Notes under the pieces: model-generated | What the model was told of the DNA's origin: nothing | What the model saw: the letters and a program-made list of their open reading frames with translations, nothing else | Database searches by the model: none | Source of the DNA: Parachlamydiales bacterium | GTDB lineage: Bacteria > Chlamydiota > Chlamydiia > Chlamydiales > JAJFMK01 | DNA: 64,000 bases | Assembly: GCA_963765145.1 (NCBI GenBank) | Contig: CAVXVG010000029.1 | Coordinates: forward strand, 160,001-224,000 | Direction of reading: 5' to 3' | Translations under genes and position numbers: made by a program | In this document: positions 49,573 to 55,483 of the stretch, piece after piece | How positions within the stretch are numbered: the stretch's first letter is position 1 | How the letters are laid out: every line of letters begins with the position of its first letter

Positions 49573-50772
49573 ATGTCAATTGAGGACTTTCACAGCCATT
49601 TTGATGAGATCAACTTTCAAGGGCTGCATCAGCAAGAAAAAGGCCCACAACTCTCTCTGCTAGAAGAAAAAGTGACATCCCTAGCGGCCAATATCCCTAA
49701 AAATCTGACAGAGTCAGATATTGCTAAACTGAAAGCTCTTGCCAGCAAAATTTCTACTGAATGCCCCGGGACAAAGCTGGACACACTTTTCCGACAACTC
49801 ATGGTAGGCATACCCGATCTCTACCCAAATCAGACAGCACTGCTTTCTGAACCAGCCCCAAGGCCTGTTGAGGGCAACAGGCTGGATCCGGAGCAGTTGG
49901 CTTCGTGGGCTAATGCACATCCCAGCAATGTCAGGGATGCAGTGACAGCCTTAGGAAGCACCGTCCATTGCATTAGTCAAGAGGAGTTTGAAAAATCACT
50001 TCATCAATCGTTAGACCAACTTAACAACATCATGCCAAAGGGACTTGAGTACCGAGTGGCCGTTCAGGAAGGGAAAAGCAACTTATGGGTGGCACAGTTA
50101 GCCACACAATCAGGCAAACTGGACACTCATCCAGTAGGGGCTATCCCGCTTGCCTTCGACAGGGGGACCTGCCCCAAAAATGTGGTGCTATTTGACGATG
50201 CCTCCATTAGCGGTGAGCAGATGGAGAGAATTGTCAAACAATTCATCACAAGATCAAAAGACGAAAATTCTCCTCTCGATAATATCTATGTTGTTGTTCC
50301 CTATATGACAACCTCAGCGCAAGAGAGAATTAAGGCAATAGCACCTGAAGGAAAACCACAGATTTATTTAATAGTGGCTAAAACTCTTCCTACCATTTCC
50401 GAAGCCTTAAGTGAACAACCTGAGCATGTAAAGACGCTCAACAATCTCTTGGCTCCTTCAGTGAGAGCCTCCGCTTTTGATAAGGAAATGACCTCTTCTA
50501 TACGTGAATCATTAAAAATTACAACGACTCTGACTCCTTATTTTTTTGCTCATAAAGTCCCCGACAAGAAATCTTTTCCTCAAACTTTAGCTAATGGATC
50601 TGTCCTTCTACGCAAAGGGGTCCCTCAAGGAGGAAACTATCGACCTATTCTTCAAGAGGTTACACCTTATAAAGATAAAGAAAGTATGACTCAACCTCCT
50701 CCTCATAAAAAAGAACCGGCTTTCAAACCCCAAGGAGAGACCGAGAGAATGGACATAATTGAAGAGGAATAG
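49573..50772 (+). CDS. phosphoribosyltransferase-like domain protein, candidate effector
   Basis: KSNLWV, VVLFDDASISGEQM (PRPP-loop-like), FFAHKVPD. Confidence 0.65.
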   Translation: MSIEDFHSHFDEINFQGLHQQEKGPQLSLLEEKVTSLAANIPKNLTESDIAKLKALASKISTECPGTKLDTLFRQLMVGIPDLYPNQTALLSEPAPRPVEGNRLDPEQLASWANAHPSNVRDAVTALGSTVHCISQEEFEKSLHQSLDQLNNIMPKGLEYRVAVQEGKSNLWVAQLATQSGKLDTHPVGAIPLAFDRGTCPKNVVLFDDASISGEQMERIVKQFITRSKDENSPLDNIYVVVPYMTTSAQERIKAIAPEGKPQIYLIVAKTLPTISEALSEQPEHVKTLNNLLAPSVRASAFDKEMTSSIRESLKITTTLTPYFFAHKVPDKKSFPQTLANGSVLLRKGVPQGGNYRPILQEVTPYKDKESMTQPPPHKKEPAFKPQGETERMDIIEEE

Positions 50773-50784
50773 TAAAATTAAGTT

Positions 50785-51210
50785 ATGTCTGTACGGCCCC
50801 CATTGATTACTATTAGAGGAGACACCTCTTTAGTTTTAAATCGTTCTACTACACGATCTGGTTCTCCAACCACAGAACCTCTCCAAATTTTCCTTAGCAT
50901 CCACAAAGTGGATAACGGAGAAGACAGGGGCTGGGATGTTGAAGTAGCTACAGGCAAAAAAGACAACATTGTCTCTAAAATCTCTTTAGGCTCATACGAT
51001 TCAGGTGAAACAGGTGATTTTGATCCATGGTTTCTTCCTGAAAAATGCGCTTCCATTCACCTTCCTGAAGAATTAAATTTCTTAAAAAACCAACATCTTG
51101 CGGTCTTTTCCTCTTATATGAAGGAAGATGACTCACTCCAATTGGAAGTGGAAAGTGATTACTTAACTATTGACCCAACTCTTCTCACCCCTCCCGATAG
51201 CCCCCAGTAG
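50785..51210 (+). CDS. hypothetical protein
   Basis: 141 aa ORF following the PRTase-like gene. Confidence 0.55.
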   Translation: MSVRPPLITIRGDTSLVLNRSTTRSGSPTTEPLQIFLSIHKVDNGEDRGWDVEVATGKKDNIVSKISLGSYDSGETGDFDPWFLPEKCASIHLPEELNFLKNQHLAVFSSYMKEDDSLQLEVESDYLTIDPTLLTPPDSPQ

Positions 51211-51221
51211 TTTTGTTAGTC

Positions 51222-51315
51222 CGCGAAGCGTTTGGAGTGCTAAACTCCTGTTTAGCTTTCACTTTTCAATGAGAGTGAAAGCTAAACAGGAGTTTAGCAC
51301 TCCAAACGCTTCGCG
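51222..51315. repeat. family A REPIN
   Basis: CGCGAAGCGTTTGGAGTGCTAAACTCCTGTTTAGCTTTCACT and its reverse complement. Confidence 0.9.
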
Positions 51316-51320
51316 AGGTG

Positions 51321-51398
51321 TTAGTAGCTGTTCTCTTCTAGGCGGACTTTGCCACGGAAAATCCAGTATATGCTGATGGTGTAACGGCGACAAGAGGG
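51321..51398 (-). pseudogene. cydB 3' relic 1
   Basis: YTISIYWIFRGKVRLEENSY*; same downstream 9 bp as intact cydB. Confidence 0.88.
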
Positions 51399-53009: not shown

Positions 53010-53660
53010 TTACTCCCTCGTTTCGAGGGTTACTGCAATGCTCACATCGCCATTTCGAGACATTCCGTAGAGCAAGTCCTTGGCCAGTGGAAGCGCATCA
53101 CCAAGATCCTGACCTAGATGTTCCCTAATCGGAAAAGGTCCTGCTGTTGTTGTAAAATATCCAGAGGGCACCTCTCTGTATCTTCTATCATGACGGACTA
53201 CAAATGTTGCTTCCTCAGCGTACTCTTTTTCTAAAAAAACCTGACAATAGTGCAGATATAAAGGTACATCTAAACAAAGCTCATTATGAGTTGTCCAACG
53301 CACGCTCTTTGTCACCATGTTTAATTCTACACACGCGATGTCATCAATCTTTGATGAATCAATCCCGAAATTGTAGTGAACGACATCCTTAACAATGGAC
53401 GAAGAAAACCGCTCTCTGTTCGCAATAAGAATCGATTCACTCACCATCAATCCATTTCCTGACGTAATACTTGCTTGCGCGCCTGTGGCTAAAACTGTCA
53501 AGATAAACAAACCTGTCACCGCACGAACAGTATTTGGATCTAGTTTGGGGAGAAAATGTCGACACGTATCTTGTATATCCTCCTTGGACGGGAGTAGGCT
53601 ATAAGCGGCTTGGCAATGCTGTAATAAAGGATGTAAAAAGAAAGAATATGATTGCGACAT
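53010..53660 (-). CDS. hypothetical protein with one hydrophobic segment
   Basis: Likely start MSQSYS at 53660; the longer ORF reads through a cydB relic. Confidence 0.65.
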   Translation of the reverse strand: MSQSYSFFLHPLLQHCQAAYSLLPSKEDIQDTCRHFLPKLDPNTVRAVTGLFILTVLATGAQASITSGNGLMVSESILIANRERFSSSIVKDVVHYNFGIDSSKIDDIACVELNMVTKSVRWTTHNELCLDVPLYLHYCQVFLEKEYAEEATFVVRHDRRYREVPSGYFTTTAGPFPIREHLGQDLGDALPLAKDLLYGMSRNGDVSIAVTLETRE

Positions 53661-53683
53661 GATTTTTAATATAGATTTATTGG

Positions 53684-53781
53684 TTAATAACTGTTTTCTT
53701 CGAGCCTGACTTTGCCACGGAAAATCCAGTATATGCTGATGGTGTAAGAGACGACAAGAGGATGCCGATAAGAGCAATGAG
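53684..53781 (-). pseudogene. cydB 3' relic 3
   Basis: Near-identical to the end of relic 2, with a 1-bp deletion. Confidence 0.88.
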
Positions 53782-53868
53782 GATGTTGGAGTTACTAAAG
53801 GTGGTAAACGGCCTTGTAAATATTCTCCGCCTGTTGTTAGATCATGCATTCAAAACATATGAGGATCT

Positions 53869-54408
53869 ATGAGACCAGTGGCAGTGACTTATCAACCAAG
53901 TCCAACTTTTATTAATCACCAAAATTTTAATCATGAAGTTCCCCTTTTGCTTGAATTTCTGCAGGGAAAAAAGATTTACATCATCCCTAACGGAGCAGGG
54001 AGAAAGTCGGAGCAGGATCCAATTCCCTATGAAGCGGCGAAAAGTTGGGCATACCCTCAACAGCCTAGAAGGCTGGCTATCGATGTAATTGCACGAGCTT
54101 ATTTTGCTATTGATGAGGCTGTAGATCTACCCTCTACAAAAATAAATCACTCGGACGGTTCCTATGCCACTAAGGGCTGGGTGGAAAGAAAGATGGATGG
54201 CGACAGGTATGTGACCAATGGGGAATGCATGGCTGCAATGCTCTTAAAGGGATACAAAGCAGTTTTTAGTGATGTAGAAGAAAACCCTAATTGTTGTTTT
54301 AATGCTTACATAAAGGGGACCGCCGAAAGAGAACTTCAAGAAAAGGCACAGTTGAGGGCACAAAAAAAAGCTGGAAAACTAGCTGCTAGCCGCTTTCATC
54401 CCTACTAA
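53869..54408 (+). CDS. hypothetical protein with an SY.K..VE...YVTNG..AAMLL.GY motif
   Basis: GAGG RBS; motif recalled from small phage-associated proteins (unverified). Confidence 0.7.
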   Translation: MRPVAVTYQPSPTFINHQNFNHEVPLLLEFLQGKKIYIIPNGAGRKSEQDPIPYEAAKSWAYPQQPRRLAIDVIARAYFAIDEAVDLPSTKINHSDGSYATKGWVERKMDGDRYVTNGECMAAMLLKGYKAVFSDVEENPNCCFNAYIKGTAERELQEKAQLRAQKKAGKLAASRFHPY

Positions 54409-54454
54409 TAACACTTAAGAAACGCCTTGAGCCTATTAGTCATTCCGCGAGGTG

Positions 54455-55483
54455 TTAGTAGCTGTTCTCCTCTAACCTGACTTTGCCGCGGAAGATCCAA
54501 TAGACGCTGATGGTGTAAGAAACGACTAGCGGAATGCCAATTAGGGCAATGAGAAGGAGGATTTGCAACGTTTTAAGGGAAGAAGAGCTATTGAAGATAG
54601 TGAGACTATTGAGATGGGGCGGTATGATGTCTCTAACTACGTTAGGATAGGTGCCAAGGCCATAAAGGGCCATCAGACAGATGATGTTAAGGGATGAGGA
54701 GATAAAAGCCCGGCCATCCCTCCCCTTTTGAATTTCACGTGGAATATTGGCGATGGCAAATACATTGATGGTGGCTACGACAAAGAAAACCATACTGTCT
54801 TTGATCGAGGCGACCATGTGGGGGTAATAGATGAGTGTAGAAAAACTTGTAGCCGCGTACAGCATGATGAAAGTGATGATCGAGGGATTGACAAACCTTC
54901 TCATTTTTTCATGAAAGTCCCCCTCTGTTTTCATCATCAGGTAAATTGCTCCATGCATCGTAAAAAGGGCCGTTGTAAACAGGCCAACTAATGCAGGATA
55001 AGCATGCATGATATCGCTTAAATGACCCGAAAACTCTCCCTCAGCATCTAAAGGGACACCTCGTATGAGGTTGCCCATCAAAAGACCTAGGATAAAGGTG
55101 ATCAAAAAAGAGGCCAACGCAAATAAGATATCCCATAACCATCTCCACCAAATTTGCGGGGACTTACTTCTTACCTCAATGGAAACAGCTCTGAAAATCA
55201 AAGCGCCAAGAAGGGCCATCGTCGGGATATAAAAGCCTGAACAGAGCGTTGCATAAATAATGGGGAACCCAGCAAAAAGGGCGCCGCCTGCAGTCACAAG
55301 CCAAACTTCATTGCCATCCCATACAGGGCCAATCGAATTGAGCATTAAGCGTCTTTCTCGATCTTCTTTCGATAACAGATGCAAAATGCCCACACCCAAG
55401 TCAAAGCCATCTAGTACGGCGTACCCTGTGATAAGGATCACAAAAACGGAAAACCAGATGAATTGGTAGTCGATTAACTCCAT
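54455..55483 (-). CDS. cydB: cytochrome bd oxidase subunit II
   Basis: LDGFDLGVG, IGPVWDGNEVWLV, LFAGFP. Confidence 0.96.
   Translation of the reverse strand: MELIDYQFIWFSVFVILITGYAVLDGFDLGVGILHLLSKEDRERRLMLNSIGPVWDGNEVWLVTAGGALFAGFPIIYATLCSGFYIPTMALLGALIFRAVSIEVRSKSPQIWWRWLWDILFALASFLITFILGLLMGNLIRGVPLDAEGEFSGHLSDIMHAYPALVGLFTTALFTMHGAIYLMMKTEGDFHEKMRRFVNPSIITFIMLYAATSFSTLIYYPHMVASIKDSMVFFVVATINVFAIANIPREIQKGRDGRAFISSSLNIICLMALYGLGTYPNVVRDIIPPHLNSLTIFNSSSSLKTLQILLLIALIGIPLVVSYTISVYWIFRGKVRLEENSY

Follow-up and report, generated by a model that had tools for sequence, protein, structure and literature searches.

Homology-facilitated illegitimate recombination (HFIR) is known from transformable Acinetobacter, Streptococcus pneumoniae and Pseudomonas stutzeri, and integrative elements insert at gene 3' ends for which they supply a replacement, as prophage e14 does at icd and islands do at tRNA genes. 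In the available excerpts of PMC2884548, HFIR is defined by one homologous and one illegitimate end. The excerpts of PMC5361080 describe type VI secretion system effector-immunity modules of Vibrio cholerae, together with Rhs orphan 3' regions, in which each new module displaces the old 3' end; HFIR is proposed as the cause, and a likeness to integrons, without an integrase, is drawn. Here we describe an array of displaced 3' ends behind the housekeeping oxidase gene cydB in a stretch of 64,000 nucleotides (the window) from a Parachlamydiales bacterium, where three truncated copies of the cydB tail (relics R1, R2 and R3) and several small genes lie between cydB and sthA. On balance, we regard this array as probably the scars of several separate recombination events with DNA of related lineages, in which the homologous end lay in cydB or cydA and the illegitimate end in the resident cydB tail; both the number and the order of the events are ones that we infer. 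The window is part of contig C29 in a 2.68-Mb assembly of 37 contigs, which is a metagenome bin (completeness 84.8%, contamination 3.3%). Peat metagenome runs contain DNA of the source genome, and the cydB proteins of this genome cluster with entries labelled Parachlamydia or Parachlamydiaceae in a protein search with the R2 peptide as query.

The displaced cydB tails and their allelic origin

The tail copies were compared by self-BLAST of positions 49001-56000, with the 3' end of intact cydB (54454-54858) as query region. Intact cydB itself occupies 54455..55483 on the minus strand and encodes 342 amino acids (PF02322, 324 bits; TIGR00203, 241 bits). R2 (52288..52692) comprises the final 405 nucleotides of the gene with its TAA stop codon, aligns with the intact copy over 405 nucleotides at 87.2% identity (E 1e-142), and has a frame that is open through 134 codons. 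R3 (53683..53781), placed by self-BLAST and a four-way alignment, consists of the final 99 nucleotides including TAA and gives a 100-nucleotide alignment at 82% (E 3e-22), while R1 (51320..51397), the final 78 nucleotides including TAA, aligns from 51312-51384 to 54446-54518 at 87.7% (E 1e-20) and is 91% identical to R2 over 79 nucleotides. Relative to R2, one base is missing in R3 and one in R1. An earlier sequence-only reading of this DNA had described three 3'-end copies besides the intact gene, all in the same orientation and all keeping the stop codon; this description holds, as every copy lies on the minus strand and the TAA is invariant in the four-way alignment. No further copy of the cydB tail is present anywhere in the 2.68-Mb assembly, and preservation shows no trend with distance from cydB, the best-kept relic being the middle one.

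The sequence-only reading had also paired the copies by their downstream sequences, and both pairings were recovered. R2 and R3 have in common 42 nucleotides past the stop codon and the start of an orphan gene that we call gene X (52247-52387 versus 53642-53781, 95.7%), and R1 and the intact gene match in the first bases after the stop, over about 20 nucleotides once a REPIN-type palindrome is removed. From cydB outward, the order is orphan open reading frame (ORF) 2; R3, gene X and a fragment of a phosphoribosyltransferase (PRTase) gene; R2, a deleted copy of gene X and hicBA; and a G run, R1, the REPIN, orphan ORF 1, a PRTase-like gene and sthA. The relics thereby split the sthA-cydB interval into four units with different cargo, whose contents we re-found as first reported, each unit being only 0.8-1.4 kb in size.

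Intact cydB and R2 differ at 53 of 405 nucleotides, with 9, 3 and 41 differences at codon positions 1, 2 and 3, respectively, and these differences are evenly distributed over the 405 nucleotides. Across the 134 codons, synonymous divergence (dS) is 0.67, nonsynonymous divergence (dN) is 0.037, and dN/dS is 0.055, a value that is not near 1 as neutral decay would give. The earlier count of about 9 amino acid changes in 133 was right in being low, the exact figure being 10 in 134. Moreover, intact cydB and R2 are each 74% identical to cydB of the congener G001, and at polarised sites the G001 base is kept 20 times by the live gene and 19 times by R2, so that the two branches are equal. Because the differences are mostly at third positions and dN/dS is 0.055, R2 was a working allele rather than a decayed local copy; it remained functional for essentially all of the period after the two types diverged, and its stranding is recent. 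For R3 and R1, the ratios of nonsynonymous to synonymous differences per site (pN/pS) are 0.09 and 0.07, both relics being too short for a separate test.

These data bear directly on the idea that no foreign DNA was involved and that the cydB end was instead duplicated in tandem on the spot, the copies then decaying and undergoing deletions and gene conversion. A dead copy should gain nonsynonymous changes, stop codons and indels, whereas R2 retains its open frame and low dN/dS at a dS of 0.67 and has a branch as long as that of the live gene, and duplication is accordingly disfavoured for R2 versus the intact gene. In addition, the PRTase fragment is 75% identical at the nucleotide level to the full PRTase-like gene, at a dS of 0.84, and the cargo differs by unit. 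Local duplication would account for the topology of the junction J2 (52687-52692), which is that of a tandem-duplication joint, for the likeness of the R2 and R3 units (93-96%), and for a pN/pS near 1 (1.01) in the deleted copy of gene X. Taken as the explanation of the whole array, we consider it distinctly improbable.

Recombination with diverged relatives, which we prefer, is consistent with the behaviour of the other end of the slot. The PRTase fragment has an open frame of 88 codons and differs from the full gene with a dN of 0.22 and a dN/dS of 0.26, and its dS is near that of cydB. Because the fragment has diverged about as much as the cydB tails, two haplotypes of the whole slot, separated by a dS of about 0.7-0.8, coexist in one array. 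Type I comprises the full PRTase-like gene, live cydB (over at least its last 405 nucleotides), and the end of R1 with its flank; type II comprises R2, R3, gene X and the PRTase fragment. R3 agrees with R2 at 94 of 98 positions and with the intact gene at 81 of 98. Given the similarity of the R2 and R3 units, these may come from one donor lineage or stem from local duplication, and to speak of four generations of the cydB end, as was done at first, is too strong.

The protein search with the R2 peptide also returned the full-length cydB proteins P0122, P0127 and P0128, encoded on short contigs of other assemblies. In P0127 and P0128, five of the six diagnostic sites between amino acids 214 and 287 are of the R2 type, and all 3 sites between amino acids 321 and 327 are of the intact type, a switch that brackets the R3 breakpoint at amino acid 310, and P0122 switches type between amino acids 265 and 287. 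These alleles, as judged by amino acid states only, show R2-type residues in full-length proteins; R2-type sequence therefore seems to be present inside working genes, and recombinants of both types appear to circulate. The proposal that the copies are once-functional alleles of related lineages, and not products of a decayed self-duplication, is thus upheld by the dN/dS value, the equal branches relative to G001 and the full-length proteins.

Junctions and the proposed route of entry

At J2, cydB sequence runs to 52692 and PRTase sequence starts at 52687, with an overlap of at most 7 nucleotides, so that two genes, each cut on its 5' side, are fused head to head. J3 (53781) and J1 (51397) also depart sharply from cydB sequence. 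The parents available for comparing these junctions are proxies only, being 13-25% diverged. The abruptness of J1, J2 and J3 fits the route put forward in the sequence-only reading, in which incoming DNA recombines homologously within cydB and illegitimately at its other end. Moreover, fusion of the cydB tail to a 5'-cut, diverged PRTase allele points to homology-anchored illegitimate recombination with DNA of a related lineage. The opposite flank gene takes part as well: because J2 joins a cydB tail to a PRTase-gene fragment, whole alternative versions of the slot are stacked.

On this basis, related chlamydial DNA would pair homologously in cydB or in cydA (55484..56860, minus strand), an ORF with 85% amino acid identity to G001 cydA, in the same gene order, that is the presumed upstream anchor region. 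The other end of the incoming DNA would be joined illegitimately within the resident cydB tail, and the incoming piece would bring its own cydB tail and downstream genes, with the old tail and its neighbours being pushed away from the gene. J2 would reflect a donor fragment extending from within the PRTase gene across gene X to cydB, having a homologous end in cydB or cydA and an illegitimate end at the broken PRTase gene. A second homologous crossover would not take place at the PRTase end because the flank haplotypes, at only 75% identity, are presumably too diverged. An upstream homologous crossover may be reflected in the mosaic full-length alleles, whose amino acid states switch between residues 265 and 287 or between 287 and 321. 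Transformation-like uptake during co-infection would be a plausible route of entry because the genome contains a ComEC homologue (136 bits). ComEC-dependent lateral transfer is reported for C. trachomatis in the available excerpts of PMC6686042. We do not regard the array as a system dedicated to capture, and it requires no function in its own right.

R1 presents a more complicated pattern. Its 5' 50 nucleotides are R2-like, and its last 27 nucleotides, together with the flank, are closer to the intact type: there are 2 differences from R2 in the first 50 positions and 6 in the last 27 (Fisher p = 0.019, on 8 differences in total). This hints at a crossover inside the repeat, of the kind that a circular intermediate would produce, or at later gene conversion. 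A single insertion flanked by about 50 nucleotides of intact-type tail was also considered, and it leaves the presence of R2 and R3 inside the block unexplained. In a Campbell-type scheme, small circles carrying a piece of the cydB tail would enter by one crossover in it, duplicating the tail, and the backbone would later be lost. The change of type within R1 and its intact-type flank are what a crossover inside the repeat predicts, and an LptF/G locus on contig C9 has copies of both flanking gene ends bracketing its cargo, as an inserted circle leaves. Integration of a whole vector without disruption of the target gene is described for Chlamydia suis in the available excerpts of PMC10715202. 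Nevertheless, the R1 test involves only 8 differences, relics that exchanged sequence by gene conversion would present the same picture, the array contains no plasmid or backbone remnant, and the fusion of two truncated genes at J2 is equally simple from a broken linear fragment. Entry of circles is therefore an account that we take seriously but consider unlikely.

The layout of intact gene, cargo and stranded 3' end is also the one that integrative elements leave, and the array might represent decayed elements that inserted serially and site-specifically into the cydB 3' end, each with a replacement tail. The genome has eight matches to the tyrosine recombinase family PF00589, none of them in the window, the array and the closest match being separated by about 119 kb; the earlier statement that no integrase is in view stands for this family, the only recombinase family searched. 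Six further integrase-type genes are present in the genome, three of which, located elsewhere, are bracketed by direct repeats of 49-50 nucleotides with 98-100% identity (C20:65400-81368, C26:3032-12163 and C29:89090-102974, the last of these outside the window) and look like ordinary integrated elements with att sites. By contrast, the cydB relics are 78, 99 and 405 nucleotides long at 82-91% identity. Thus, the cydB locus has no tyrosine recombinase in the window, no constant crossover point, as the unequal relic lengths indicate, and no near-identical repeats; in addition, its units measure only 0.8-1.4 kb, and at one junction the opposite flank gene is fused to the cydB tail. Site-specific insertion is, in our view, an improbable origin for the array.

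Assembly support, cargo and scars elsewhere in the genome

The array derives from a metagenome bin, variant strains occur in the same runs, a 33-G run of the kind typical of sequencing artefacts lies within it, and contigs of other assemblies break inside cydB, as that of locus L017 does at amino acid 186. Strain variants of one peat-metagenome locus might consequently have been strung together by the assembler. We aligned contigs from another assembler, obtained for 4 of 4 peat runs (X1-X4), to positions 49400-55700, with 31 pieces listed and 448 more; these runs may come from one sampling campaign and so are not fully independent. The passage from R1 through the G run to hicA is bridged by X2 (51345-51750, with 25 fewer letters in the G run), and that from hicB to the deleted gene X by X1 (51810-52164) and X3 (52003-52215). 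Bridges from R2 through the PRTase fragment to gene X are provided by X1 (52544-53044) and X4 (52529-52739), from gene X through R3 to orphan ORF 2 by X3 (53508-53859) and X2 (53708-54071), and from orphan ORF 2 to cydB by X2 (54066-54652) and X3 (54132-54535). Most of the new junctions are therefore reproduced by a second assembler, across 4 of 4 runs, with unique sequence on either side, the R2 ORF itself is called as P0124 on a separate Joint Genome Institute contig, and equivalent relics occur in a congener assembled as a single contig. A chimera is unlikely, indeed very improbable in our estimate, with the outermost link, across the REPIN, being the least secured.

Several observations weigh against the reading that we favour. 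Among the pieces listed, none crosses the REPIN between orphan ORF 1 and R1 or covers 52215-52529. Nor does any one read or contig extend over the entire array, where the depth is only 3-10x. The genomes at hand include no close strain with an intermediate state: the nearest, G001 and G002, have 70-75% DNA identity and a different cydB neighbourhood. At 87% identity the cydB tail is a poor RecA substrate, and the anchor would have to lie further upstream. The mosaic structure of R1 is not predicted by a purely linear, one-ended insertion, whereas a circular single crossover or gene conversion predicts it, and the likeness of the R2 and R3 units means that one step may have been a local duplication. 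Finally, the ComEC homologue is the only sign of transformation seen in this lineage.

Comparison with relatives is limited by gene order and by the contigs at hand. In G001, cydB lies at 332 kb, sthA at 953 kb and a PRTase homologue at 1213 kb, and there is no comparable sthA-cydB interval because these three genes lie far apart. A metagenome scan in which 80 loci were kept yielded only one near-identical locus, L017, the rest being at most 67% identical, and the L017 contig ends within cydB. The contig of L017, from this organism, and the G003 contigs C204 and C156, from a related genus, break in cydB at about amino acids 177-186, just upstream of the start of R2 homology at amino acid 208; allele mixtures or relics at cydB may fragment assemblies. 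The run of 33 G (51424..51456, plus strand, length uncertain) is one of only two G/C runs of at least 11 in the genome, the other being 62 G on contig C19 (44929-44990), and it may reflect either hypervariability at this place or a sequencing artefact that the assembler lengthened.

As to whether other displaced 3' ends exist genome-wide, we took a census by self-BLAST of the genome in which pairs were placed by position in ORFs of at least 200 amino acids and local (within 20 kb), low-copy pairs were kept. This gave 61 pairs in 49 genes. The largest class, with 26 pairs, is that of a gene 3' end with a truncated copy downstream; 3' ends with a copy upstream account for 4 pairs, 5' ends with a copy upstream for 8, 5' ends with a copy downstream for 5, and internal segments for 18. 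The 26 pairs correspond to 20 gene rows and, with one pair falling under two convergent genes, to about 19 scarred genes, including cydB and gene X. Hence cydB is not a special anchor, as the same scars stand behind about 19 genes. These include RecQ (3 relics), an M48 peptidase (2), a solute-binding protein (2), HemN, topoisomerase IV subunit A, LptF/G, SDR, ClpX and an MqnA-like gene. Between genes and relics lie AbiE and HipA toxin-antitoxin pairs, ankyrin, Sel1 and TPR proteins, a TIR/NB-ARC protein, a protein kinase, an AvrB-like protein, a YhcG nuclease and an IS110 transposase, among other cargo. In 22 relic comparisons the differences are mostly silent, and the 19 rows outside cydB, when pooled, have 149 synonymous differences at 676 sites and 78 nonsynonymous differences at 2180 sites (pN/pS 0.16). 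Four rows run contrary to this trend, with pN/pS values of 0.53, 0.71, 1.01 (gene X) and 1.22. Two or more other loci resemble J2 in having a relic immediately next to a piece of the opposite-flank gene, and at two further loci the relic is close to such a piece or lies across the cargo from it.

Three of these loci illustrate the range of structures. RecQ (contig C21:91601-101937) has three stranded 3' ends of 103, 546 and 77 nucleotides, making it as rich as the cydB array, with cargo that includes GNAT, ABC-transporter, TauD-like and ankyrin genes. The M48 peptidase (contig C12:9173-21155) has two stranded 3' ends and, about 250 nucleotides past the last relic, a copy of the 5' end of the upstream gene; its cargo comprises AbiE and HipA toxin-antitoxin pairs, ankyrin, Sel1 and a SidD-like/DUF294 protein. 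On contig C26 (141439-141708), a stranded 3' end of the solute-binding-protein gene is joined directly to a copied 5' end from the gene across the slot, a scar of the same type as that at 52687-52692.

The same pipeline was applied to the first 800 kb of G001, a single-contig genome of the same genus whose cydB protein is 92% identical. It found 10 pairs, 6 of them in the class of 3' ends with downstream copies, although one of these represents tandem paralogues. The remaining five pairs represent four scarred genes: AhpC (two relics), GNAT, a hypothetical protein, and AcrB. The AcrB relic shows 10 synonymous and 5 nonsynonymous differences, and ungapped comparison of pN/pS is usable only for AcrB and the first AhpC relic, since the second AhpC relic and GNAT have indels. 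Because the single-contig G001 has such scars, they are not a binning artefact. Three other chlamydial families (G010, G019 and G039), covered over 784 kb, yielded 5 pairs, none in the 3'-end/downstream class. The number of scarred genes expected in 784 kb is 5.8 at the density of this genome, about 7 per Mb, or 3.9 at that of G001, and the Poisson probability of zero is 0.003 or 0.02, figures that are rough as the genomes are few and related. The scars thus seem to be enriched in this genus. Accessory genes found at scarred 3' ends include toxin-antitoxin pairs, ankyrin, TPR, kinase effector-like and defence-like genes. We would suggest, tentatively and with considerable doubt, that integrase-free entry of accessory genes in this genus takes place mainly at the 3' ends of core genes, and that stranded tails feed back into the live gene through gene conversion, a process that would account for the mosaic alleles of cydB.

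The cydB slot is bordered on its left by sthA (48171..49571, plus strand), which encodes the soluble pyridine-nucleotide transhydrogenase (NF003585, 549 bits against a cut-off of 465; Pfam Pyr_redox_2). The full-length PRTase-like gene (49573..50772, plus strand) is a semi-conserved flank of the slot, matched by PF24390 at 24 bits, below the cut-off of 27, and by PADLOC PRTase_III-A at 24 bits. Homologues of this gene occur just upstream of sthA in G003 (C310:21-3369), which belongs to another genus, and about 2 kb from a distant cydB-like gene in G009 (C156:4002-7850), which belongs to another family; the PRTase-like gene is a recurrent neighbour of sthA and cydB-like loci and not random cargo. 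Contigs from runs X2 and X3 join 50254 straight to 50719, and some strains therefore carry a 464-nucleotide deletion inside it. In addition, contigs with 27 and 18 differing letters cover 49577-50346, in the PRTase-like gene, and 54188-54652, at the junction of orphan ORF 2 and cydB, respectively. A strain diverged by about 3.5-4% therefore has at least these two parts of the layout.

The remaining features are small. Orphan ORF 1 (50785..51210, plus strand; 141 amino acids) is followed by the REPIN-type palindrome (51222..51315), which measures 94 nucleotides, has arms of 42 nucleotides that are 100% complementary and many copies in the genome, and is inserted directly past the R1 stop codon. 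The hicA-hicB toxin-antitoxin pair (51505..52112, plus strand; PF07927, 35.8 bits, and PF05534, 73.9 bits) is cargo, and a paralogous pair is found on contig C17 of the same genome. The copy of gene X with an internal deletion, together with the spacer that it has in common with R3, occupies 52109..52288 on the minus strand, and its gene X part (52109-52248) is 92.9% identical to 52989-53128 of the other copy in self-BLAST. Head to head with R2 stands the PRTase fragment (52687..52953, plus strand), which covers codons 94-181 of the diverged allele, and beyond it gene X (53010..53663, minus strand) encodes 217 amino acids. Orphan ORF 2 (53869..54408, plus strand; 179 amino acids) has as its sole match in protein searches itself, on 6 contigs, with one weak match among 40 relatives. 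No homologue of gene X is contained in any of 40 relatives, and gene X and both orphan ORFs have no match in Pfam, PADLOC, NCBIfam or a protein atlas, the protein search returning at most themselves.

Comparison with known systems

The mechanism that we infer at cydB, be it called HFIR or sequential displacement, is already known, and the value of this locus is as an example and as a measure of frequency in its lineage. The new elements are a three-relic array at a housekeeping gene, the haplotypes that make it up, the mosaic alleles in other assemblies and the count of scars in the genus. Gene gain by obligate intracellular bacteria is poorly documented beyond the Chlamydia pathogens. A literature search on Chlamydia with microhomology and insertion found nothing pertinent, and the available excerpts of a review of lateral transfer in Chlamydia (PMC8936141) mention neither duplication nor illegitimate recombination nor microhomology. 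At the cydB locus and about 18 others, single gene gains can be followed almost to the base, and diverged housekeeping alleles are seen to arrive with small accessory cargo and without mobile-element machinery. This provides a testable picture of gene flow among co-occurring environmental chlamydiae. Stranded gene ends, moreover, are a simple marker of recently acquired genes and can break or confuse metagenome assemblies.

Of the systems to which the array can be compared, integrons resemble it in that small cassettes are stacked in order on one side of a fixed point. The cydB array differs in having neither an IntI-type recombinase nor a common border site, its borders being pieces of neighbouring genes, and the REPIN (51222-51315) is the sole inverted repeat in the array that might be set beside attC-type repeats at cassette ends, for which no model was run. 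The term integron-like, applied to the array in the sequence-only reading, is therefore an analogy only, as neither dedicated machinery nor a repeated recombination site is seen. Integrative elements at 3' ends likewise leave cargo between an intact gene and a stranded 3' end whose differences are mostly silent, but they have an integrase and a fixed crossover core, neither of which was found at cydB.

The V. cholerae and Rhs arrays are closer, in that displaced 3' ends form an ordered array for which HFIR is the proposed cause. There, however, the displaced ends are variable toxin domains, and retained immunity genes have obvious selective value, whereas the cydB array is anchored on a housekeeping oxidase and has near-synonymous tails and unrelated cargo, namely a toxin-antitoxin pair and orphans. 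HFIR itself, in the excerpts of PMC2884548 and PMC5361080, matches the cydB locus in its single homologous anchor, its illegitimate other end, the placement of foreign DNA beside a conserved gene and the lack of any need for a recombinase. It differs in that the cydB case is read from scars rather than from experiments, in an obligate intracellular, chlamydia-like host. In HFIR, resident DNA is deleted, whereas at cydB the joint lies within the anchor gene and the tail is duplicated.

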